A DNA stretch of 64,000 nucleotides from a virus (lineage: Duplodnaviria > Caudoviricetes). The notes beneath the pieces were generated by a model. The model was not told the origin of the DNA, ran no database searches, and saw only the letters and a list, made by a program, of their open reading frames with translations. Positions 14,673 to 51,615 of this stretch are shown in pieces. The position numbers and the translations under genes were made by a program. The first letter of the stretch is position 1. Every line of letters begins with the position of its first letter. The stretch is from positions 96,001 through 160,000 of the IMG/VR virus record IMGVR_UViG_3300033074_001484. One strand, given 5' to 3'.

Positions 14673-14680
14673 TATAAATA
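14673..14680 (-). promoter_or_regulatory. TATTTATW late-promoter-like motif
   Basis: Sense TATTTATA about 25 nt upstream of nrdJ; recurrent motif. Confidence 0.5.
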
Positions 14681-19577: not shown

Positions 19578-20821
19578 CCACCCACCTCTAAAAAATTTAT
19601 AGGGACCAAAGAACCATAATCATGTCCTACTTTATATGTGACGGGAAAGTTGTCCTTGCCAATTATAGCCGACAATTCATAAAGTGTTGATGGTCCATCA
19701 ATTGGATTATAATCAATAAGAAATGAATCGTAAACATACAATAGTAATAGACTTCCCTTCTGATATAAATATTCAAATACATCGTTAAGAATGCAAAAAT
19801 TGCGCTCGGTCTCAATAGACTGTAAAAGATACGATAATAAAATGCCGCCATTCATATCCTCTCGTTTAGGTGGATATATTCGGCGTTTAAACATTAATGA
19901 CCGGATAAATCCGGTTGATTGAAATTCATTCATTAATGAGTGTTTGATATTCATAACGGCCTCAAATATAGGATGTTTGGACAGTTCATCATCATCCATA
20001 CTGTAAAATGAGCGCATTACCATTTTTTTAACAACCTGAATATCATACGATTGGTTAGTTGTCACCTTCAACCATTCAACTAATTTAAGATAAAAATTAT
20101 CATAATATTCATCAAAGACATGTCCTGCCACGATATATCGTAACATTAGCATTGGATGATACGACTTAAAATCATACTCAATAAGAATTCCGTTTTCAAA
20201 CCGCGACGTAATGTCATATCGAATATCCGACGCATGTGGGATTGCCATGAAATTTATAGTGTTTACGTTCGTAGGACGACCTGTCATGGTATATGGGTTG
20301 TACTTATTGTGTACATAGGTATTACCCATTTTAATGGTAGATTGGTTCAATCTATTAATGGCAGGTAGAATCACTGATCTGAAAGATTCAACGGCAAATA
20401 TATCATCAGATTTCATTTCTGATACATTATTCAAAAATTTATGCACAAATTTATCAATAACCTCTACCCATTTACTAATTGGTATGATATTAACATCAAA
20501 TGGAGTGTTGAATATAAATTGCTGTAAATCTGACACATAATCCTCAAATTGTAAAGGCTTGCCAGTTATAACATACATTGTATATGCTGCAACATTCAAA
20601 GGTGAATAAACATCAATGATATACCCGGATATACGAGACAGTTCTACATCTTCTCCGGAAATTGGAAGATCAGGATGCCTCACGTTATAAATGGTGCGCC
20701 GCTTTGACCACATATCAAACACATATATAAAGGATACCGCCCCATCATATAATTTAATGGGTATCAATAGTTTATTATTATCAATACCATGTAAATTAAA
20801 TCCGGTCTCCAACAATGTCAT
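19574..20821 (-). CDS. Family A DNA polymerase-like protein (divergent polymerase domain)
   Basis: TGRP, motif A IEYDF, motif B K..Y, LQSIE, motif C YVYDS. Confidence 0.75.
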   Translation of the reverse strand: MTLLETGFNLHGIDNNKLLIPIKLYDGAVSFIYVFDMWSKRRTIYNVRHPDLPISGEDVELSRISGYIIDVYSPLNVAAYTMYVITGKPLQFEDYVSDLQQFIFNTPFDVNIIPISKWVEVIDKFVHKFLNNVSEMKSDDIFAVESFRSVILPAINRLNQSTIKMGNTYVHNKYNPYTMTGRPTNVNTINFMAIPHASDIRYDITSRFENGILIEYDFKSYHPMLMLRYIVAGHVFDEYYDNFYLKLVEWLKVTTNQSYDIQVVKKMVMRSFYSMDDDELSKHPIFEAVMNIKHSLMNEFQSTGFIRSLMFKRRIYPPKREDMNGGILLSYLLQSIETERNFCILNDVFEYLYQKGSLLLLYVYDSFLIDYNPIDGPSTLYELSAIIGKDNFPVTYKVGHDYGSLVPINFLEVGG

Positions 20822-41195: not shown

Positions 41196-41590
41196 CGAGT
41201 GACATTCCTACTAATTTTAACCTTACCTTCAAGAACACGTACTACATATTCAGATACACCTGACCCACTATATAATTCAATATCATAATAACCGTCTTGG
41301 AACGTAAACAGGCTACTACTGTATGCACTTATTTGGATTGAAAACGACCCAGATGAGCGTGGTAATGTTACCGATTCACTTACAGGCGTCATATTGATTC
41401 CCGTACCATCTTCCGTAATAGTTGTTGTTAATCTGGCATATACTGTAGATGACTCGATTTGCGGTCGAATATGCATACGCGCCTCATAACCTGTCAAATT
41501 TATAGGTGTACCATCCGCATTGGTATACAATATGCGGGTATTAAAGGTACTACCTTGCTCAATTATAAATGTATGTCTACCTGCTGCCAT
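41192..41590 (-). CDS. Virion structural protein (BppU-N/Ig-like adaptor)
   Basis: IEQGSTF, PINLTGY.ARM.IR, YYDIEL, RVLEG.V. Confidence 0.6.
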   Translation of the reverse strand: MAAGRHTFIIEQGSTFNTRILYTNADGTPINLTGYEARMHIRPQIESSTVYARLTTTITEDGTGINMTPVSESVTLPRSSGSFSIQISAYSSSLFTFQDGYYDIELYSGSGVSEYVVRVLEGKVKISRNVTR

Positions 41591-41601
41591 ATTATATCCT
41601 A

Positions 41602-42267
41602 CTAACTATTATACAACAACCTCAATATTTCATCAATTGCCTCGTGTCTATAATTTTGAGTTAATGTTGCAATATAAACATATGCAGAGTCTCTTAATTT
41701 GGGAATGTCATGTATAGCAGACGTATCTGTATATTTCAAATCTATTTGTCGATTATCACCACATAATATCATTAAACTATTTTTACCCAAACGACCCAAT
41801 ACCATTGTCAATTGCTGCTTAGTTAAATTTTGAACTTCGTCAATAATACACACACTATTAGTGAATGTTCGGCCACGGAAATGACTCAATGACACCAATT
41901 CAATTAAACCTTTATCCTCACACTTCTTTAAGTATTCCGGATGATTGTATACCTGACGCATGTTATCTCTGATAGGTACTAACCAAGGCTCCATTTTTTC
42001 TTCCAATGAACCGGGCAAAAACCCATTATCCTCGGTACCCACAGTTGGTCTGGTTATTACAATCTTTTCAACCTCTCTTTTAAACAATTTATCCAATGCT
42101 ATTTGAACTGCGAGCAGGGTTTTACCTGACCCTGCTTGTCCTAATATAAATGATACAGGATGATTTAATATATGTCCCTTTGCAATTTTTTGTTCATCTG
42201 ATAATTGGATATTATATGTTAATTCAGTTTTAGGTTTTCTCTTGTTTAAATTACTTTCCATCTCCAT
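41602..42267 (-). CDS. phoH: PhoH family ATPase
   Basis: GQAGSGKT, ITRP, GFLPG, FRGRTF, IIDEVQN, RLG, GD..QID. Confidence 0.95.
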   Translation of the reverse strand: MEMESNLNKRKPKTELTYNIQLSDEQKIAKGHILNHPVSFILGQAGSGKTLLAVQIALDKLFKREVEKIVITRPTVGTEDNGFLPGSLEEKMEPWLVPIRDNMRQVYNHPEYLKKCEDKGLIELVSLSHFRGRTFTNSVCIIDEVQNLTKQQLTMVLGRLGKNSLMILCGDNRQIDLKYTDTSAIHDIPKLRDSAYVYIATLTQNYRHEAIDEILRLLYNS

Positions 42268-42279
42268 ACAAACTTTTTA

Positions 42280-42287
42280 TATAAATA
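42280..42287 (-). promoter_or_regulatory. TATTTATW late-promoter-like motif
   Basis: Between the capsid terminator and phoH. Confidence 0.6.
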
Positions 42288-42296
42288 GTATTATAT

Positions 42297-42327
42297 AACA
42301 CAAAGGCCACCCAAAATTTGGGCGGCC
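42297..42327 (-). terminator. Intrinsic terminator after the major capsid gene
   Basis: Sense GGCCGCCCA-AAUUU-UGGGUGGCC-UUUGUGUU. Confidence 0.75.
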
Positions 42328-42352
42328 CTCATGTAATTTACCATTAGTAGAT

Positions 42353-44014
42353 TTAGATTAAGTGCAATCCTTCTACATATAGTTTTGCGTAGAATTCCGG
42401 ACGTGTTACTTTCTTTCCGTAACGTGTCATCACGCCCTTCCTTGGTGTGAAGTTATCCGGATCATACAGTAATGGTGTCATCATAAGCGGAATATATGGT
42501 GAATACACCGCACCTGTTTCAAGGTAATTACTTCCCCGGAATCCGACAAGGATCAGATTTTCGAGCATGTACGGGTTTTTATAAACATCCCATTGATTTT
42601 TGATACCACCAATCTTTTGTACTCCCATTGCAAATTTTGCCTGAGTCCCATCCGTATCAGCAGCAAATCCCGGTATAGATTCCAAAATAGTTGCAATTGT
42701 CGGTGAAGTGACTATAAAGTTTGCACCGCCCCGAAGGGTTAATTGGTGAATTTTATTAGACAACTTCTGCAATTTAGTACCAATTGTCTGGAACCATGTA
42801 CCTTGATTATACGCTGTCACGTTTGCAGCAGATAATTCAAATGCAGACCCATTGTGCTGATATCCAATGCGAGTTGACCAGTAGTCAACTGTCGGTGCTT
42901 CGGATATAATCATATCAAGAATTTCAAGATCAATTTCCATAGAAATGTACTCACTTAAAATTCCAGTCAATTCCGCCTCGGCATCGATGTTCTGATACGC
43001 ATTGATATCTTGTGCAAATTCTGGTGTCCATACAGCTTTCAACTTACGAGTTTTAGCCACAATAGGCTCACTACGCATTTGAAGATCGATTTCTGGAATA
43101 TCAAGCTGTTCACGTGCGCTACCTGCTTGTGTTTTTCCTTCTTCAAAATCACCCCGCGTTACGTCTGTCGGCTGCTTATGGTAATTAACAGTAATCGTCT
43201 GTGATCCAGTAGCAGCGGCAGAACCAGAAACTACAAAGGAAATCAGACCGGTTGTTGAATTATACTTAGTGAATGCCTGATACACATCGTGTACAAGTGT
43301 TCCACTCGCATTTGACAGTGTAAACGCACGAACACCATGTGGATCAAATCCAGAAATGGCATCCTTGTGAATTATCACTTTATGAATTCGTGATCCACCA
43401 ACCAATAATGATTGCGAGAACGCGCTATCGTGGTTATAATCCGCACTCGCTAATGAACCAGTTGTCCATGTAGTTGAATTTGCAGACGATCCACCAACCA
43501 ATGCTGATGACGAATAATCATTTATCGTGTATCCAAATCGACCTGCCCCATACAGACCTTCGGTTGGAGTAGCATCCCCATATGATGCAGCAGTTCCCCG
43601 ATTTGCATCGGTCACACCCATCAACGAATCGTTCTGTGAATCTTTACCAGCACCAGTGTTAAATCCGGGCTGCCCAGTAGAATACTTAAACTCAAGCCAA
43701 AACACAAGACCGGATGGTAAATTCATTGGCTGTACACTTACGAATTCTTTAGCTGAAATCTCGGCAAAAATTCTACGCACAAGCGGCAATGCTATACCAG
43801 ACCACTCTTCACTATTTGCAGACGTACCAGTGCTATTCGCTTCTGTTACCAACTGCTTTGCTTGGTTTTCGAGCATGACGGCCATCATCATCTTGTCCCG
43901 AACCTTTAAATCTTCAAGAAGGCCAGTTTTTTCCCACTTTTTTGCAAGTGCAACGGCTCTGGCCCTTTGATTCGCATGATCGCCTTGCGGCAGTAAGCTA
44001 TTTACATTAGACAT
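42353..44014 (-). CDS. gp23: Major capsid protein (T4 gp23 family)
   Basis: KW..TGLLE, LENQ, PLVRR, VQPM..PSGL.F, RKLKA.W..E.AQD, Y.PY.PL, TRYG. Confidence 0.97.
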   Translation of the reverse strand: MSNVNSLLPQGDHANQRARAVALAKKWEKTGLLEDLKVRDKMMMAVMLENQAKQLVTEANSTGTSANSEEWSGIALPLVRRIFAEISAKEFVSVQPMNLPSGLVFWLEFKYSTGQPGFNTGAGKDSQNDSLMGVTDANRGTAASYGDATPTEGLYGAGRFGYTINDYSSSALVGGSSANSTTWTTGSLASADYNHDSAFSQSLLVGGSRIHKVIIHKDAISGFDPHGVRAFTLSNASGTLVHDVYQAFTKYNSTTGLISFVVSGSAAATGSQTITVNYHKQPTDVTRGDFEEGKTQAGSAREQLDIPEIDLQMRSEPIVAKTRKLKAVWTPEFAQDINAYQNIDAEAELTGILSEYISMEIDLEILDMIISEAPTVDYWSTRIGYQHNGSAFELSAANVTAYNQGTWFQTIGTKLQKLSNKIHQLTLRGGANFIVTSPTIATILESIPGFAADTDGTQAKFAMGVQKIGGIKNQWDVYKNPYMLENLILVGFRGSNYLETGAVYSPYIPLMMTPLLYDPDNFTPRKGVMTRYGKKVTRPEFYAKLYVEGLHLI

Positions 44015-44031
44015 TTTATCATCTCCATTTT

Positions 44032-45051
44032 TTATAATTCAGCAGCTTTTATTCCTGCAATAACTTTCCATCTATCTGCAAAATCATATTGAGTTTTCAC
44101 AGGAGCACGATTTTCAGTTATTGGACGTGTCGCAACCTTTTTAGGATTAGCAATAGATTTAGATTTGCTACGTGCTTTTGTACCGCTTGTAAATTGCCCT
44201 GAAAGGGTTTTGTAAATCATACTCGCATCATTTACAGTTTTAGAGCGATCAAATGCTTCCAATACTTTTTCTTGTTGTGACTGAGTTAGTTTATAGTTGC
44301 GAATTATTTTTGTCGCATACATCAACTTTGCATTCAGCAAGTTTACCTCGTTAATTGCTTTCCGCAGCACACTGTTCGCACGTGTTGCCTCTTGTAATTT
44401 ACGAGTTAATTGTGCAACTTCCGATTGGGTAGATGGTTTAACTGGATGTCGTTTTTCAGTATTCTTTACTGTCTTACGATTATTAGAGTTTTCTCGCATT
44501 TCACGCTTCATACCCCTAATAAGACTTTCGATAACATCTTCATCTTCTTCACCACCTAAATCCTCGCCTCCTAATTCTTCCTCGCCTCCTAAATCATCAA
44601 GTGGTTCTTCTTCACCACCTAAATCCTCGCCTCCTAAATCATCAAGTGGTTCTTCTTCACCACCTAAATCCTCGCCTCCTAATTCTTCCTCGCCTCCTAA
44701 ATCTCCAAAGTCAAAATAATTAAAATCGAACTCACCATCTTCCTCACCCTCAAGTTCAGAAATCATTGAATCCAATTCCGTCTCACTTATTTGAAAATCA
44801 TCATCAAGCTCTTCGGCACCTTCCTCCGATAAATTATCCGCAGGTGTGCCATCTTGTCCATCATCCACATAATCTTCTTCGGATAGTTCCAAATCATCAC
44901 CAGATAGTTCATCTTCCTCCGCAATTTTGGCGGACACCATCCTCTGAATTTGTGGTTGGAATGTTTCTGCTATAGCCGCCTTCGCATTTTCAATTGCAAG
45001 TGTTCGGACTCTGTTAGCATCTGCAATGGCTTCATCTAATAATTTACCCAT
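44032..45051 (-). CDS. Prohead core scaffold protein (gp22-like)
   Basis: Highly acidic coiled coil directly upstream of gp23; LLDEAIADA, EVNLLNAKL, RW..IAGI. Confidence 0.8.
   Translation of the reverse strand: MGKLLDEAIADANRVRTLAIENAKAAIAETFQPQIQRMVSAKIAEEDELSGDDLELSEEDYVDDGQDGTPADNLSEEGAEELDDDFQISETELDSMISELEGEEDGEFDFNYFDFGDLGGEEELGGEDLGGEEEPLDDLGGEDLGGEEEPLDDLGGEEELGGEDLGGEEDEDVIESLIRGMKREMRENSNNRKTVKNTEKRHPVKPSTQSEVAQLTRKLQEATRANSVLRKAINEVNLLNAKLMYATKIIRNYKLTQSQQEKVLEAFDRSKTVNDASMIYKTLSGQFTSGTKARSKSKSIANPKKVATRPITENRAPVKTQYDFADRWKVIAGIKAAEL
44546..44703. repeat. Coding tandem repeat (DLGGE/DLGGEEE/PLD units) in scaffold
   Basis: Nucleotide-identical blocks tcttcaccacctaaatcctcgcctcctaa (x3) and atcatcaagtggttct (x2). 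Confidence 0.9.
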
Positions 45052-45067
45052 GTTGTTTTCTCCAAAA

Positions 45068-45126
45068 TAAGATTATTCAAATCTTAACCGTATTGTGTGA
45101 TATCTTAATTAAGTATTTAACTTAAT
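45068..45126 (-). promoter_or_regulatory. Twin hairpins in the scaffold/capsid leader
   Basis: Two perfect 7-bp stems with 5-nt loops UAAAU and UGAAU. Confidence 0.5.
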
Positions 45127-45162
45127 ATTCTTTTTAATATATAGTTGAAAAATATGAAAAAC

Positions 45163-45540
45163 TCAATATCTCGCATTTATTTTTTTAATTATCATCCGCA
45201 TCCGTCTTCCAAATTCACTATCAAAATCCATAAGCATTTTAGAAACTTGGGTTGATAACGCTTTTTTTATTAGATTATAATACGAATTTAATTGTAATTT
45301 CAACTCTTTTGCAGTAGGATCGTTATTCTTAACTGCCATGATATATGCAGATTGTAGTTTGGCAATTTTATCTGGAAGTTTAATGGTATGCTTAACATTT
45401 GCACCGCCACCGTAAATGTTAACACTCAATGAAATAGTGCCGGGAGTACGACCAGTTTCAATATCTACCCCATCTGAAAAACCCCCACTGAGATTTTTCA
45501 TATCGTAACGTATCTTTTTTTCAACTAAATGTGACGACAT
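45163..45540 (-). CDS. Hypothetical head-region protein
   Basis: 125-aa ORF in head operon. Confidence 0.7.
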   Translation of the reverse strand: MSSHLVEKKIRYDMKNLSGGFSDGVDIETGRTPGTISLSVNIYGGGANVKHTIKLPDKIAKLQSAYIMAVKNNDPTAKELKLQLNSYYNLIKKALSTQVSKMLMDFDSEFGRRMRMIIKKINARY

Positions 45541-45542
45541 TT

Positions 45543-45767
45543 TTATTTAGATTTACGTTGTTTATATATAGCATCCTGCACTTGTTTCCTTCGTCTGACA
45601 CTACGTTTAACAAATTCTTTTCGAGAATGTAATTCATTTACAATTCCTGCCTCTTTATACATTCGTTTAAACACTGACAATGCTGCTGACAAACTATCAC
45701 CAACTGTCACACCAACACCAGAACCGGGCAATATACAATTCAGGTAATGTTTATTCTTTTCAATCAT
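45543..45767 (-). CDS. rpsU: Phage-encoded ribosomal protein bS21
   Basis: V.VGDSLSAALSVFKRMYKEAGIVNELHSRKEFVKRSVRRRK matches the bS21 pattern AL..FKR...KxG...E...R..F.KPS..RR. Confidence 0.88.
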   Translation of the reverse strand: MIEKNKHYLNCILPGSGVGVTVGDSLSAALSVFKRMYKEAGIVNELHSRKEFVKRSVRRRKQVQDAIYKQRKSK

Positions 45768-45770
45768 AAC

Positions 45771-45986
45771 TTATATATTTAAATTAATTAATTTTTCCCA
45801 TTGATTACGTGATAACGTAATTTGACTTGAAATACTTCCATTAACATAAACCCTAAGATATATCGTATCCTCTTCTGATTCTACATACACCTCATTATAC
45901 ATTGCAGCGTCTGGTGATTCTAATTTAATCTTGGCCTCATGCAACGCATTGTTTACAATTGATTCAAAATCCATACCCATTAACAC
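45771..45986 (-). CDS. Hypothetical protein
   Basis: Short ORF in head operon. Confidence 0.6.
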   Translation of the reverse strand: MLMGMDFESIVNNALHEAKIKLESPDAAMYNEVYVESEEDTIYLRVYVNGSISSQITLSRNQWEKLINLNI

Positions 45987-46295
45987 TTAATCTGTTAACT
46001 TAGATTTTCTCATCAATCTATCAAAATTTTCTTTTAACGTTGAATTTGCAAACGTTTTAGATACTTTCAATTTACCTTCTGGTAGTAATGATTTCAACTT
46101 TCGTTGTACAATGTCATCCTTGACATCCAACCACACTACTTGATTAGATTCCCGTATAGCCAATGATTGCACTGATGGATTCATTCTAAACAATGTACTC
46201 CCATCTGAATGTAATAAATCCCCAGTGGCTGATTGCCCTTTAGTGAATTTCAAAATGGCCAATAAATCTTTTTTACTATATTTCACCTTATTCAT
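45987..46295 (-). CDS. Hypothetical protein
   Basis: Basic 102-aa ORF ending LKENFDRL. Confidence 0.65.
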   Translation of the reverse strand: MNKVKYSKKDLLAILKFTKGQSATGDLLHSDGSTLFRMNPSVQSLAIRESNQVVWLDVKDDIVQRKLKSLLPEGKLKVSKTFANSTLKENFDRLMRKSKLTD

Positions 46296-46311
46296 AATAC
46301 ACCCCTATCAT

Positions 46312-46752
46312 TTAAATGTCATAATATCTCTTTAACAAATGTCCAATATCTTCATATGCCGCCTCTAATCGTTGTTGGCGTTGTATTATCTCAGCAGCTT
46401 CAGTTTTCATGACCTTGACAGCATCTTTCATTTGTTTTATATGTCGCGATGCAGTGACTTTGTCAAACCATCCATCAGTTTCAGACAAAGTAACACTTTC
46501 GGCAGCATTCACCATTTTTTCAATTGCACCAACAGCCTCTTTAAATTTTCCACTGCGATAAATATCGGTGCCCATCTCTGAAAACTTTTTAATTGCATTC
46601 AAAAATTGCCGCTTATCGGGTATAGGAATAGATGGCTTTGCTTCATCCTCTGCTTCAAAGATAAATCGGTTAGCTTCGTATAAATCTGCTAATGTTCGCA
46701 ATCGTCCAACTTTACGACCGATTCCATAGCTATTTTTATAAGACCGTTTCAT
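46312..46752 (-). CDS. Head-region coiled-coil protein
   Basis: ATGA overlap with protease stop; WFD.VT..RH.K, QRLEAAYEDIGH.L.RYY. Confidence 0.75.
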   Translation of the reverse strand: MKRSYKNSYGIGRKVGRLRTLADLYEANRFIFEAEDEAKPSIPIPDKRQFLNAIKKFSEMGTDIYRSGKFKEAVGAIEKMVNAAESVTLSETDGWFDKVTASRHIKQMKDAVKVMKTEAAEIIQRQQRLEAAYEDIGHLLKRYYDI

Positions 46753-47369
46753 ATACAACATACTCCGGATAATTCACATATTATATCTCTAATAAGTATT
46801 TCAGCAGTTACATTTCGTGATGTCAAATTTTCATTTACATTTTCCGACATTGGCCGCATGAATGCCCCGTGCGTGGACGGGTTCGATACAAAATCAAACG
46901 TTACTAATTCAAAGTCAGATTGAACTTCTAATGTTTCAGAATCATCTTCATGTAATGTTTTTACAGAACCCAACCCTCGTGATGAAATTCCAAGTGTAAT
47001 TCCTGATTTAAATAATTCCTTCAAAATATTCCCTGACGGTGTGTTTAATATTTCAACCACACCCACGACATCATCACCATCCCAATCAATCTCAATAATA
47101 TTATGTGACACATTCTTTAAATTAACAATACCACTATCAGGATGATCCAGTTCACCCAGTGCGCGTTTATCCTTCACCTCATTGTTTTTATACCTTGCTA
47201 TTTCTCGCTCCAAAATAGGTCTCGGATATACTCGACCATTTTCATTCTTAGCATTCGCACGTTGTAGTATACCTTTTACAATAAGACGGCCATTATTACG
47301 CTCCATAGATTCGACTATGGCGTTCCGATCAAATGTAAATGGTATATATTCAAGTAGTAATTTAGACAT
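46749..47369 (-). CDS. gp21: Prohead core protease (gp21)
   Basis: N.NGRVYP, ALGELDHP, TPSG, GISSRG.GS, DFVSNPST. Confidence 0.95.
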   Translation of the reverse strand: MSKLLLEYIPFTFDRNAIVESMERNNGRLIVKGILQRANAKNENGRVYPRPILEREIARYKNNEVKDKRALGELDHPDSGIVNLKNVSHNIIEIDWDGDDVVGVVEILNTPSGNILKELFKSGITLGISSRGLGSVKTLHEDDSETLEVQSDFELVTFDFVSNPSTHGAFMRPMSENVNENLTSRNVTAEILIRDIICELSGVCCI

Positions 47370-47370
47370 A

Positions 47371-48540
47371 TTATTTACTCATCTCCCTTACTATATTACT
47401 AATTTTCAATAATCTTTCTGATATCTTTTTCAGTTTAGGTAACGTTGATTTCCAATACACATCCTGTCCCATGCCTCCTTCACCCTTAAATTTATTAGCG
47501 CGTTTCACAGTCTGTTCAATTTCATACAACTTTCTATGAACTTCGTTAATTACCGCATTTAACTTTTGCCGGGGGGTTTGCTTATCATCACTCGCCCATT
47601 CATCATAGGTGGCTTCGCTAAGTACTTTTTTTATTCGCCGTTTACCTAAATCATATAGAGATTCGATAATTTCATATCCAGTGGATGTAGTAGAATTTTG
47701 ATATTGTTTTCTCATATCTTCTTTTGAAGACGATGGCCGGTGAAATGCTCCGGGAGTTCTAATTTGCCCCTCACCACCATCCAAATTTGATGTAGTATTT
47801 TCACTTAAATGATTACCATTTTCATCTACTAACGTCAAACCACCATGATCATCCTCAAACCATATATTAGGATAAAATTTGTGTTTATACATCCAAGTTT
47901 TAACCGCATTCCATGCGTCCTCATCTTCAGTAAATGTCCCTATATGCTTACCGGAAGCACTCACTGATAACTTCCAACCATTTGACGATACAATTATATC
48001 ATCCTCAGATGGTCCATCAGCCGACATATCCTCATCATCACTCGCCCATTCATCATAGGTGGCTTCGCTAAGTACTTTTTTTATTCGCCGTTTACCTAAA
48101 TCATATAGAGATTCGATAATTTCATATCCAGTGGATGTAGTAGAATTTTGATATTGTTTTCTCATATCTTCTTTTGAAGACGATGGCCGGTGAAATGCTC
48201 CGGGAGTTCTAATTTGCCCCTCACCACCATCCAAATTTGATGTAGTATTTTCACTTAAATGATTACCATTTTCATCTACTAACGTCAAACCACCATGATC
48301 ATCCTCAAACCATATATTAGGATAAAATTTGTGTTTATACATCCAAGTTTTAACCGCATTCCATGCGTCCTCATCTTCAGTAAATGTCCCTATATGCTTA
48401 CCGGAAGCACTCACTGATAACTTCCAACCATTTGACGATACAATTATATCATCCTCAGATGGTCCATCAGCCGACATATCCTCATCATCCGAAATTTCAT
48501 TATCAAATCTTTCCGAAAGCAGTTTTATTAAATTGTCCAT
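47371..48540 (-). CDS. Head-region protein with exact 150-aa internal duplication
   Basis: Adjacent to gp21; TPGAF motif; duplicated block. Confidence 0.75.
   Translation of the reverse strand: MDNLIKLLSERFDNEISDDEDMSADGPSEDDIIVSSNGWKLSVSASGKHIGTFTEDEDAWNAVKTWMYKHKFYPNIWFEDDHGGLTLVDENGNHLSENTTSNLDGGEGQIRTPGAFHRPSSSKEDMRKQYQNSTTSTGYEIIESLYDLGKRRIKKVLSEATYDEWASDDEDMSADGPSEDDIIVSSNGWKLSVSASGKHIGTFTEDEDAWNAVKTWMYKHKFYPNIWFEDDHGGLTLVDENGNHLSENTTSNLDGGEGQIRTPGAFHRPSSSKEDMRKQYQNSTTSTGYEIIESLYDLGKRRIKKVLSEATYDEWASDDKQTPRQKLNAVINEVHRKLYEIEQTVKRANKFKGEGGMGQDVYWKSTLPKLKKISERLLKISNIVREMSK
47584..48489. repeat. Perfect 450-bp tandem duplication
   Basis: 47584-48033 matches 48034-48483 with no mismatch seen; ATCATC microhomology at the junctions. 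Confidence 0.95.
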
Positions 48541-48542
48541 AA

Positions 48543-48902
48543 TTAACCTGCCAATAATTTAGTTATAGTATTTTTAACATGTATTTTTAACACACTTTCA
48601 ATAATTGCAGATTTTGACATTTTCGCAATTTTAACAGATTTACCATCCCATTCAGAGCCATTCAAAAACAACGTATTATTATGTTCGACCAATGTTACGC
48701 CCGGTAATTTATTTAACACGTTTTGGAGTTTTGCATTTTTTAATACATTTTTACCATTAATAACCAAATGATTCCCCTCAACAATCTTTGCAACAACCAC
48801 ATCATCAACTACTAATGATTTATTTTTTGATTTAATACTACCAAATCTTCCATCTTTACCTGCGCAAAATTTTAATATCACCTTGTCATTTAATGGAATC
48901 AT
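48543..48902 (-). CDS. Hypothetical protein
   Basis: 119-aa basic ORF in head operon. Confidence 0.7.
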   Translation of the reverse strand: MIPLNDKVILKFCAGKDGRFGSIKSKNKSLVVDDVVVAKIVEGNHLVINGKNVLKNAKLQNVLNKLPGVTLVEHNNTLFLNGSEWDGKSVKIAKMSKSAIIESVLKIHVKNTITKLLAG

Positions 48903-48910
48903 GCCAATCC

Positions 48911-49750
48911 TTATAATTTTGTATTTAATTCATAATATTTCAAAAGAGATGTAAGGTGGTTATCTTGGATAGTTCGACTTGTTGTTATAATATCTATGAG
49001 TTTTATAGCCTCTGATAATTTTATTCGTAACACATTATCCGCCAAACCATCCAATTTTTTTGTCAAAGAACTCTTCAATTGTTTACATTCTGTATAAACA
49101 TAATCTCTAAATTCCGTAGATTTGACATCATCGTATATATATCTTCTAAGAAGTTCTCGTTGTTTTGGTTGTAAAACGCTATAAGTTTTATTGAATTTTT
49201 CCAACAGCATTTTAAATGACATAACTTGTAAATCAGGACTTAGCTCCCGCCATTTTTGAATGTCATCATTAATAGTATTTTCACTATTATTTTCACCAGT
49301 ATCATGTTCAATTAACGTCTCCAAGGCTACCACAATATCATCTGGATATATATCAGGCTTTCCAAATCCTTCAAATAATTTATATACCGATGCAAAAATT
49401 TTATAGTTTTGAACGCGATTTGCAAAAAAGTCATTTTCAGAATATTTTGCCTTCAACTCACCAATAAGTTTAAACTTTTCAAGATTCAACTTTTCAAGAT
49501 TCAACCGATTTCGGCCTTTAATGGTTACATCAACCAACCGGTCAATTGGTATTAATTTTTTAGTGCGATTTGTAATTGAGTGATAATAACTCAACTCTTT
49601 AAATAATTCTGTTTTTGGATTGAAATATTTGCGTATAAGTGAATACGCTGTCGGGTTTTTATTGTTCAATAATTCGGAAACTACCATTTTAGATAGTATC
49701 TCAAACAATAATCCAGTATTTTTATACTTATTATGTTTTATCCGCTTCAT
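48911..49750 (-). CDS. Head-region protein downstream of portal
   Basis: KH.KYKNTGLLFE, NYK.FASVYKLFE; TATTTATA motif upstream. Confidence 0.75.
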   Translation of the reverse strand: MKRIKHNKYKNTGLLFEILSKMVVSELLNNKNPTAYSLIRKYFNPKTELFKELSYYHSITNRTKKLIPIDRLVDVTIKGRNRLNLEKLNLEKFKLIGELKAKYSENDFFANRVQNYKIFASVYKLFEGFGKPDIYPDDIVVALETLIEHDTGENNSENTINDDIQKWRELSPDLQVMSFKMLLEKFNKTYSVLQPKQRELLRRYIYDDVKSTEFRDYVYTECKQLKSSLTKKLDGLADNVLRIKLSEAIKLIDIITTSRTIQDNHLTSLLKYYELNTKL

Positions 49751-49767
49751 GCACACCTAATATTTAC

Positions 49768-49775
49768 TATAAATA
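49768..49775 (-). promoter_or_regulatory. TATTTATW late-promoter-like motif
   Basis: Intergenic, after portal. Confidence 0.6.
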
Positions 49776-49794
49776 TGAAATTAGTGTATAAAAA

Positions 49795-51615
49795 TCAAAT
49801 ATCATCAATATCCATAAGTCGGTGCTCGTTAAGCATATCCAATTCTTTGTTAGCTTTAATAGATAACGACTTCTCAACATCTTTCCGGTTTTTCATAATA
49901 TGATCTAAATTAATACTATATTCAGTATTTTTAGCCCCTTCCGCCGATTTTTTACCAGTGGGATCACGTCCAAAATCCACATCTTTATCCGACTCAAACG
50001 AACCGGGTTCTTCTGGCCTTCCCGGATTATCTTCTCGACCATCAGGTTGTGTCGTAAACATGGTTTTCACATCAGCACCATTTGATTGTATCTTAGATGC
50101 CAATTGCATGCTTGCAATATCATGTGTTGTACCAAACGTTTTTCCAGTAATTTTTGGATCATTACCTTCCGACTTTATTTGTTCAAATCTAAATTCAGAT
50201 TTCAAGTCTTCAACAATTTCATCTTGCATTGCTATGAATTCTTCTTCTGACATATCAAATAATGTTTCATATATATGCCGTCTACTAAACAAAGATTTAT
50301 CAAGCATTGATGTTGCCAATGTCATTTTTTCATTTAACAATTCAACTTGTTGTCTTTTGAAAATTATTGACGGGTTCGGAAGTTCTAACTCAAAATCAAG
50401 CAGTTTCTCTCTATCAACACCCTGTAAAAACAAATGTATGATTGCAATTTTATAGAGTTCACTAACAAACATTTTTTGAACCCGTTCAACGGTACGTGCA
50501 AATCGAATATCCATCGAAGCTAATGTTGCTTTACCATCAACACCCTCTTCATATCCAAGCCACGCCTTGGGTATTTTAAATGATGCGAAAAATTTACCCA
50601 ATATGTGATTAATATCTGCAAGCTGATCTCCCCCGGATAGTCCGGGCAACGTCTCAATAGAAGTTCCACTTTCCGACCCACGTACCGGTAGAAAATAATC
50701 TTCCAACATGTTCTGTATGTTGAATTTCAAATTATAATCACCTGTTCGCTCATCAACATAAGGGACTTTTTTCATCGAATCTGCAATATCTTGTATGTAC
50801 CCGTCGATTTCTTCCGGGGCAATATTCCCAATGTCAATTTTAAATAACCGTCGCTCTGGTGCCCTCATAATTCGTTGTAGCATCATTGCATCTTCTAACA
50901 GCATTAATTGTTTATACGTCTTTCTACCGGGTTCCAATATGGAACGACCATACGGTAAATATATCGTATCCGTCAATAGTCTAAAATGGGCAACCTCATA
51001 TTCTTCAAAGTCCTTACGAACCGAGCCAAATACTTCCTGTTCTATCATATCCTCACTGAATGAAAACTTAGTTTTCCCATCACCATCCAAATCTTCCTCG
51101 CGATGTAATGCCAGTGGGTGGTAAGGCGCAACATTCACTACGCCGTAACGTTCCCTGATATCTAAAATCAAAAAGTAATCACCATATTTACAAGTGTTCC
51201 TAACCCATGAAAATATATTGAATTCAATATTAAGCACGTCATAAAACAGATTATATAAAATTTTTTTTATCTGTTCATCACTTGTTTTTATGGTAAGTAC
51301 ATTACCCGCATGGTCTTTCACAGTTGACTCATCTGCATATATGTCCAACGCCGACGATACTATAGCGTCTCTATCCATAAGTTCGTAATCACGGTACAAT
51401 TGTCGTCTGTACGCTTCTACATCTTCAATTGTACCAACAAATACAGATTCGCGATACGTATTGCGTTTCCAACGACCGCGACTATACACGGTACGTTCCT
51501 TTTCCGCCATCTGATGTAAATTAACATCAAATATCTTTAATTGATTACCCGGAACCTTAGTAATCACTAAGTGTCTACTGAATAATTTTGCTAATGAGTC
51601 TCTAAATGATGCCAT
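49795..51615 (-). CDS. gp20: Portal protein (gp20)
   Basis: SALDIYADE, PYGRS.LE, EDAM...RI.RAPERR.F.IDIGN, EDYFLP.RG, IETLPG. Confidence 0.96.
   Translation of the reverse strand: MASFRDSLAKLFSRHLVITKVPGNQLKIFDVNLHQMAEKERTVYSRGRWKRNTYRESVFVGTIEDVEAYRRQLYRDYELMDRDAIVSSALDIYADESTVKDHAGNVLTIKTSDEQIKKILYNLFYDVLNIEFNIFSWVRNTCKYGDYFLILDIRERYGVVNVAPYHPLALHREEDLDGDGKTKFSFSEDMIEQEVFGSVRKDFEEYEVAHFRLLTDTIYLPYGRSILEPGRKTYKQLMLLEDAMMLQRIMRAPERRLFKIDIGNIAPEEIDGYIQDIADSMKKVPYVDERTGDYNLKFNIQNMLEDYFLPVRGSESGTSIETLPGLSGGDQLADINHILGKFFASFKIPKAWLGYEEGVDGKATLASMDIRFARTVERVQKMFVSELYKIAIIHLFLQGVDREKLLDFELELPNPSIIFKRQQVELLNEKMTLATSMLDKSLFSRRHIYETLFDMSEEEFIAMQDEIVEDLKSEFRFEQIKSEGNDPKITGKTFGTTHDIASMQLASKIQSNGADVKTMFTTQPDGREDNPGRPEEPGSFESDKDVDFGRDPTGKKSAEGAKNTEYSINLDHIMKNRKDVEKSLSIKANKELDMLNEHRLMDIDDI

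Follow-up and report, generated by a model that had tools for sequence, protein, structure and literature searches.

The gene at positions 45543-45767 of the window, as we call the whole 64,000-nucleotide stretch that was analysed from a Caudoviricetes virus (IMG/VR record IMGVR_UViG_3300033074_001484, positions 96,001 to 160,000), is by profile and alignment a genuine gene for ribosomal protein bS21. It belongs to what is, judged from its sequences, a phage-only bS21 subfamily with a basic N-terminal extension of 12-16 residues ending hydrophobic-hydrophobic-Pro-Gly. Its most probable role, to which we give a probability of about 0.6, is that of a late-expressed bS21 paralogue that would occupy the bS21 site of host ribosomes and alter the choice of mRNA. 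A phage bS21 beside head genes is known, whereas an extension-bearing bS21 with a fixed partner gene and a distinct Shine-Dalgarno (SD) pattern appears to be new in the literature searched.

bS21 is the commonest ribosomal protein gene in viruses, and to our knowledge no effect of a phage bS21 on translation has been shown in natural infection. Close relatives of the present phage fall into two groups: some combine SD sites on about 40% of their head-region genes with a fixed partner gene and a bS21 that has the extension, and others lack all three. This comparative pattern turns the role of phage bS21 into a concrete question for reporters and structures. If the hosts are Bacteroidia, in which the anti-SD is hidden behind bS21, it points to a virus-made specialised ribosome; if they read SD normally, the gene would simply add a further member to a class already known.

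The bS21 Gene Within the Head Operon

The features discussed below are the following.

46749-47369, minus strand: T4 gp21-type prohead protease (PF03420, 106 bits; PHROG 207), with GGAG at 47383-47386
46312-46761, minus strand: 149-aa helical protein, accompanying bS21 throughout the phage family
45771-46295, minus strand: two small ORFs of 102 aa and 71 aa between the 149-aa gene and bS21, with no Pfam or PHROG match
45768-45800, minus strand: A/T-rich, SD-less leader of bS21; the upstream ORF stops 3 nt before the ATG
45543-45767, minus strand: phage bS21 gene, 74 aa, ATG start (PF01165, 42.8 bits against a cut-off of 27)
45726-45767, minus strand: N-terminal extension of bS21, codons 1-14, MIEKNKHYLNCILP, leading into P14-G15; absent from Flavobacterium johnsoniae bS21
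45600-45608, minus strand: K54-R55-S56 in place of K40-P41-S42 (alignment to 7jil_z)
45564-45566, minus strand: codon TAT of Tyr68, equivalent to F. johnsoniae Tyr54 (ungapped alignment)
45163-45540, minus strand: 125-aa ORF starting 2 nt past the bS21 stop, with homologues in the closest relatives (L005-L007)
44032-45051, minus strand: acidic gp22-like scaffold (from position and composition), with SD GGAG at 45060-45063
42353-44014, minus strand: gp23-type major capsid protein (PF07068, 246 bits), with SD GGAG at 44023-44026

The order on the minus strand is prohead protease (S77), the 149-aa, 102-aa and 71-aa ORFs, bS21, the 125-aa ORF, scaffold and gp23-type capsid, and it agrees with the original prediction of a bS21 ORF between protease and scaffold. 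The 102-aa and 71-aa ORFs were called as genes on Logan contigs too. The window has its long ORFs on the minus strand only and a GC content of about 36%, and no tRNA genes were detected in the 64 kb. Between 41500 and 50000, scans for sigma-70-like promoters and terminators gave chance-level results, with no terminator-like site. Because spacing is tight (3 nt and 2 nt), the strand is shared and no terminator-like site lies within 41500-50000, co-transcription of bS21 with the head genes is likely.

The identity of the ORF, proposed in the original prediction, was borne out by several comparisons. The PF01165 Ribosomal_S21 profile matched it with 42.8 bits (E 4.3e-11), residues 20-71 lying on profile positions 4-55 of 55, and the 74-aa ORF also matched PHROG 21469 ("ribosomal protein S21"). 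Among solved structures it is most closely related to 9i5v_9 and to the F. johnsoniae chain 7jil_z, and phmmer pairs residues 20-70 with residues 6-56 of the latter without gaps. An AlphaFold2 model built with 46 lineage sequences (pLDDT 86.9) predicts helices at 26-39, 42-48 and 55-73, corresponding to the three bS21 helices. Run against solved bS21 chains, the lineage profile scored 51 and 49.5 bits on two of Bacteroidia type, with lower values for Firmicutes (about 40) and Proteobacteria (about 33). Searches with the single protein were far less productive: tblastn against 50,697 GenBank phages gave no match at E 1e-3, a word-indexed protein search returned the self-match only, and a locus search with the protein as query recovered no relatives.

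The gene sequences further indicate a functional, selectively maintained copy under purifying selection. In nine close pairs of lineage bS21 genes pN/pS was 0.12-0.27, and in a variant contig, 98.9% identical, the bS21 gene differs by two synonymous changes only. These values contradict a decaying or neutral passenger gene acquired from a host, a view that has only the small size of the gene in its favour and also conflicts with a position kept in 49 loci, a lineage motif of its own and an intact frame; we regard it as extremely improbable. Shorter forms of the protein, starting at TTG (Leu13) or GTG (Val20), were considered and rejected: these codons are not conserved starts, and such late starts are unlikely because protein-level conservation within the lineage extends to the residues upstream of them.

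N-Terminal Extension and a Phage-Only Subfamily

An N-terminal extension of about 18 aa had been noticed at the outset; the extension is present, and alignment to 7jil_z shortens it to 14 residues. The AlphaFold2 model places an added helix at residues 3-11, as a prediction. An exhaustive HMMER search over 1.84 billion representative proteins gave 95 bS21 matches, in many of which a common motif recurs, namely a basic stretch, hydrophobic-hydrophobic-P-G, two or three residues, and G-[VA]-x-V. The phage protein follows it with I12-L13-P14-G15...G19-V20-T21-V22. Some N-terminal extension is present in 47/47 distinct lineage bS21 sequences, with the Pro in 39 and the Gly in 45; the P-G motif is missing from the bS21 of Microcystis phage Mel-JY01. 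The gene also has the placement of the subfamily, downstream of the protease and 149-aa genes and upstream of the scaffold, with an SD-less leader. The Vibrio phage protein "RpsU3", which matched one lineage member, was set aside as another type, having neither the P-G motif nor the Tyr.

The gene lies among small ORFs between protease and scaffold, where T4-like phages encode core proteins, and a basic bS21 might thus be a packaged head protein, loaded into the prohead with the extension as targeting peptide and then either injected, to act on ribosomes as soon as infection begins, or retained as a DNA-binding internal protein. Encapsidation is raised as a possibility by Chen et al. (2022; PMC9723584), and it would explain SD sites on early genes. 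However, across the extensions of the 47 lineage sequences neither a T4-type L/I-x-E cleavage or capsid-targeting motif nor any Glu is conserved, and relatives lacking bS21 build their heads without it. The copies of a protein that a capsid holds are, moreover, far fewer than the ribosomes of a cell, and we consider packaging very unlikely.

The C-terminal half of the protein carries the signature of the Bacteroidia type in part. Its Tyr had been placed on Flavobacterium Tyr54, and the ungapped alignment to 7jil_z confirms that Tyr68 equals Tyr54, the Bacteroidia-type signature residue. Across the 47 lineage sequences this column holds Y in 37, F in 7, and H, K and L in 1 each. In F. johnsoniae, Tyr54 is a Bacteroidetes signature residue that stacks on A1534, and Ile55 adds a van der Waals contact (Jha et al., 2021; PMC7797042). 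The phage protein has Lys69 at the Ile55 position and departs there from the Bacteroidia type, as it does in its C-terminal part, where residues 57-74 include 8 basic and 1 acidic and are therefore more than weakly basic. The reading of KRS as an altered KPS motif was correct as to the substitution, but not as to its meaning: the middle position is K in 28, P in 14 and R in 1 of the 47 lineage sequences, and with Lys as the most frequent residue at this relaxed position, KRS is nothing unusual.

Relatives, Conserved Gene Order and a Companion Gene

With the capsid protein as bait, 80 IMG/VR loci with 56-67% capsid identity were retrieved. Of the 65 in which both a protease and a capsid gene are present, 49 encode bS21 between protease and scaffold, in the same orientation. 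The order portal-...-protease-149aa-bS21-scaffold-capsid, on one strand, is found in 49 IMG/VR loci, in Mel-JY01 and in a contig binned with Woesebacteria, and scaffold homologues precede the capsid gene in all loci. The last contig (LBWB01000046.1, 5.8 kb, from a Candidatus Woesebacteria MAG) contains the protease, 149-aa, bS21, scaffold and capsid module; it was the only match in a scan of bacterial genome contigs and is probably a phage contig mis-binned into that MAG.

The 149-aa gene follows bS21 without exception: both are present in 49 loci, both absent from 16, and none is discordant. Mel-JY01 and the uncultured huge phage LR756508 have it as well. The protein has a strongly conserved, C-terminal helical core, in which 19 columns are invariant among 35 sequences. 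Neither Pfam nor PHROG gave a match, a Foldseek search of the PDB with its model returned none at E 0.001, and its ESM Atlas neighbours are phage-only "hypothetical protein" clusters. We propose it as a candidate functional partner of the phage bS21.

The nearest GenBank phage capsid proteins are those of Mel-JY01 (54%), Flavobacterium phage immuto (52%) and LR756508 (51%). In the capsid tree, a clade lacking both bS21 and SD sites (L022 and the L008 group, support 95) is nested within the bS21-bearing radiation as sister to the clade of the window, and immuto branches deeper.

Mel-JY01 (PP395634; L128-L137) showed some peculiarities of its own. About 17-24 boxes matching TTG-N18-22-TAnnTTTG, a promoter motif of the Bacteroidota -33/-7 type that here often reads TTGCATAC...TTTCGTAnnTTTG, lie 30-50 nt ahead of small non-structural genes, which would not be expected of a phage recorded on a cyanobacterium; the bS21 of Mel-JY01 has no equivalent of Tyr54. 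Boxes of this kind stand out in Mel-JY01 and in G004, a contig without bS21, and are absent from immuto and from the bS21-bearing IMG/VR contigs. Inferring hosts from them was abandoned as too insensitive, since immuto, a true Flavobacterium phage, has none.

Shine-Dalgarno Sites in Phages With and Without bS21

In the window, an SD core lies 4-18 nt before the start of 19/62 genes against a background of 8%, and the capsid, scaffold, protease and sheath genes are included. SD sites also precede the capsid gene in 31 of 40 and the scaffold gene in 34 of 39 bS21-bearing relatives, whereas relatives without bS21 over the complete interval have none on capsid (0/8), scaffold (0/5) or protease (0/7) and show A-rich leaders. 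When head-region genes with an SD of at least 5 nt were counted, the result was 287/727 (39%) for 51 bS21-bearing loci and 0/197 for 16 bS21-less loci, a Flavobacterium phage among them. Over whole contigs with bS21 the SD fraction was 14-27% against a background of 5-9%; without bS21 (the 142-kb contig G004 and immuto) it was 1-2% against 8-12%, that is, depleted. On two contigs SD sites were richer on homologues of the structural genes of the window (33% vs 14% and 44% vs 18%) without being confined there, as non-structural genes reach 13-18%, above background.

The bS21 gene stands apart, with an SD of its own in 0/45 lineage genes. Its leaders are A-rich in most lineage members and end in AAGTTAT-ATG. 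Most lineage bS21 genes (L005-L084) also have a box, TTGAAA-N9-TTATATTA, 25-45 nt upstream of the start, which is absent before bS21 in the clade of the window. In the main clade (contigs G002 and G006), TTATATTA-like boxes lie before 22-31% of the homologues of structural genes and before 6-10% of the remaining genes, an enrichment that fits a late promoter.

The association is not a general property of phage bS21. The huge phages LR756504, LR745206 and LR756502 encode a canonical-length Tyr54-type bS21 and have SD fractions of 2-4%, with no SD use. In LR756501 (L148), a 735-kb uncultured phage, a canonical-length Tyr54-type bS21 at 20001-20195 has a strong SD, AAAGGAGGATAA, before its ATG, and 18% of nearby genes have an SD against a background of 5%. 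Since three huge phages with bS21 are free of SD, possession of the gene is not in itself a sign of SD use; it is in the extension-bearing lineage that the two go together.

The SD pattern may only reflect host type. Extension-bearing phages would then infect SD-reading bacteria and their bS21-less sisters Bacteroidia, so that the SD contrast would be a by-product of host phylum, and the phage bS21 would merely top up or replace host bS21, keeping ribosomes active during late mass production. Consistent with this, SD sites exceed background on non-structural genes, the genes scored as SD-less show no depletion of G at -12 to -7, and Mel-JY01, the one cultured relative with bS21, is recorded on Microcystis. 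The three huge phages with a Bacteroidia-type bS21 and no SD sites point the same way, and one nested bS21-less clade plus immuto on the capsid tree make up only about two independent contrasts. On the other hand, the Bacteroidia type is the nearest match to the lineage bS21, which retains the aromatic signature of that phylum (Jha et al., 2021; PMC7797042), the SD-free clade is nested in the bS21-bearing radiation as sister to the clade of the window, and the Bacteroidota -33/-7 boxes of Mel-JY01 stand before small early genes. A difference in host type also leaves unexplained the consistent lack of an SD on the bS21 gene alone, and we hold this explanation, the main rival to our own, to be somewhat unlikely.

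Comparison With Known bS21 Systems

In its core the finding is a known kind of gene, since phage bS21 near protease and capsid genes with Tyr54 retained has already been published (Mizuno et al., 2019; Chen et al., 2022). The background given in the original prediction, that phage bS21 genes occur near structural genes and that bS21 takes part in anti-SD sequestration in Bacteroidia, agrees with the literature (PMC9723584; PMC7797042). According to Chen et al. (2022; PMC9723584), the bS21 gene of freshwater myoviruses with predicted Bacteroidetes hosts is separated from the terminase, portal, protease and capsid genes by no more than a few genes; position 54 is aromatic in 61/61 bS21 sequences; and in a survey of 900 published phages with bS21, the gene most often found nearby was the prohead protease, generally at a distance of 2-4 genes. 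In their phages bS21 is transcribed together with capsid genes, and the authors proposed that it substitutes into host ribosomes late in infection (PMC9723584). The present phage resembles theirs in having bS21 a few genes from protease and capsid and an aromatic residue at the Tyr54 position. In contrast, their bS21 lies on the strand opposite the head genes and here on the same strand, inside the protease-scaffold interval; their genomes span 293-331 kb and the longest contig with the present bS21 has 180,350 bp; and their results and discussion, as consulted, describe no N-terminal extension, 149-aa partner or SD contrast (PMC9723584). In the literature that we searched, no account was found of an extension common to phage bS21 in the same gene order, of bS21 co-occurring with a 149-aa helical protein, of an SD contrast between bS21-bearing and bS21-less sisters, or of an SD-less bS21 gene.

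The bS21 of pelagiphage HTVC008M, a T4-like myovirus like the present phage, enters Escherichia coli ribosomes and is the only phage bS21 so shown (Mizuno et al., 2019; PMC6375957). At 67 aa, this protein resembles most closely the bS21 of the phage's own host, Pelagibacter, and no extension is mentioned (PMC6375957). The host protein of F. johnsoniae shares the fold, core motifs and Tyr54 with the phage bS21 (PMC7797042; PMC9976891), which differs from it by 14 additional N-terminal residues, Ile55 to Lys, Pro41 to Arg, and a shorter, more basic C-terminal tail. Whereas F. johnsoniae rpsU has an extended SD used for autoregulation, the phage gene has none. On the F. johnsoniae platform bS21, bS18 and bS6 hold the anti-SD, and loss of bS21, removal of its C-terminus or Y54A raises translation of SD-led mRNA 3-5-fold (PMC9976891; PMC13000457). 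A precedent for ribosome specialisation comes from Francisella tularensis, in which an alternative bS21 is reported to alter which mRNAs are translated (PMC9578407); those paralogues are bacterial and chromosomal, with no sign of kinship to the phage gene beyond the family.

Proposed Role of the Phage bS21

The preferred reading is that of a late-expressed paralogue that changes mRNA choice; the original prediction, of late expression and exchange into host ribosomes with a changed initiation preference, is partly supported. Being probably transcribed with the protease, scaffold and capsid genes of head morphogenesis, bS21 should appear late in infection. By analogy with the bS21 of HTVC008M, the protein would take the bS21 site on the host 30S platform, close to the mRNA exit channel and the 16S rRNA 3' tail, and would there shift which mRNAs are initiated. 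In this lineage such a change would most likely concern SD use, given an A-rich, SD-less bS21 leader that unmodified ribosomes could read and abundant late genes that are SD-led. That the phage bS21 acts on SD reading at all is a tentative proposal, possible rather than probable. Simple help with the anti-SD sequestration cited in the original prediction is a poor fit, as the scaffold, capsid, protease and sheath genes are SD-led and the bS21-less sisters are SD-free.

For Bacteroidia hosts, it is at best possible, and perhaps unlikely, that the extension-bearing bS21 makes ribosomes read SD sites. This proposal rests on an SD-less bS21 gene, SD-led late genes and the complete absence of SD from bS21-less sisters. 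Its strongest form, that the extension-bearing bS21, perhaps with the 149-aa protein, converts SD-blind Bacteroidia ribosomes into SD-reading ones, we judge unlikely. Native ribosomes would read the SD-less bS21 mRNA, and the product would replace host bS21 and free or re-route the anti-SD; SD-led capsid, scaffold and sheath mRNAs would then outcompete SD-less host mRNAs, and sister phages that lost bS21 would also have had to purge every SD. Two observations count against an SD switch. The Tyr54 position is kept (Y or F in 44/47), which predicts continued sequestration of the anti-SD and not its release, and SD sites occur on non-structural genes, which would be read before a late bS21 is made.

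Other Features of the Head Region

TATTTAT(A) boxes were noted on the minus strand at 14673, 21420, 31101, 31894, 33760, 40558, 42280 and 49768, in intergenic gaps just upstream of structural genes. They may be a candidate late promoter, with a window-wide count (19 against 14 expected) that is not above chance. Just upstream of the protease, a 389-aa ORF (47371-48540, minus strand) contains a perfect direct repeat at 47581-48330, with a spacing of 450 nt and at least 300 nt at 100% identity, which duplicates about 150 of its residues; a genuine tandem duplication and an error of assembly are both conceivable, and one Logan contig ends inside the repeat. The scaffold gene (44032-45051, minus strand) contains a run of near-identical acidic repeats made of GGEDLGGEEEPLDDL-like units.
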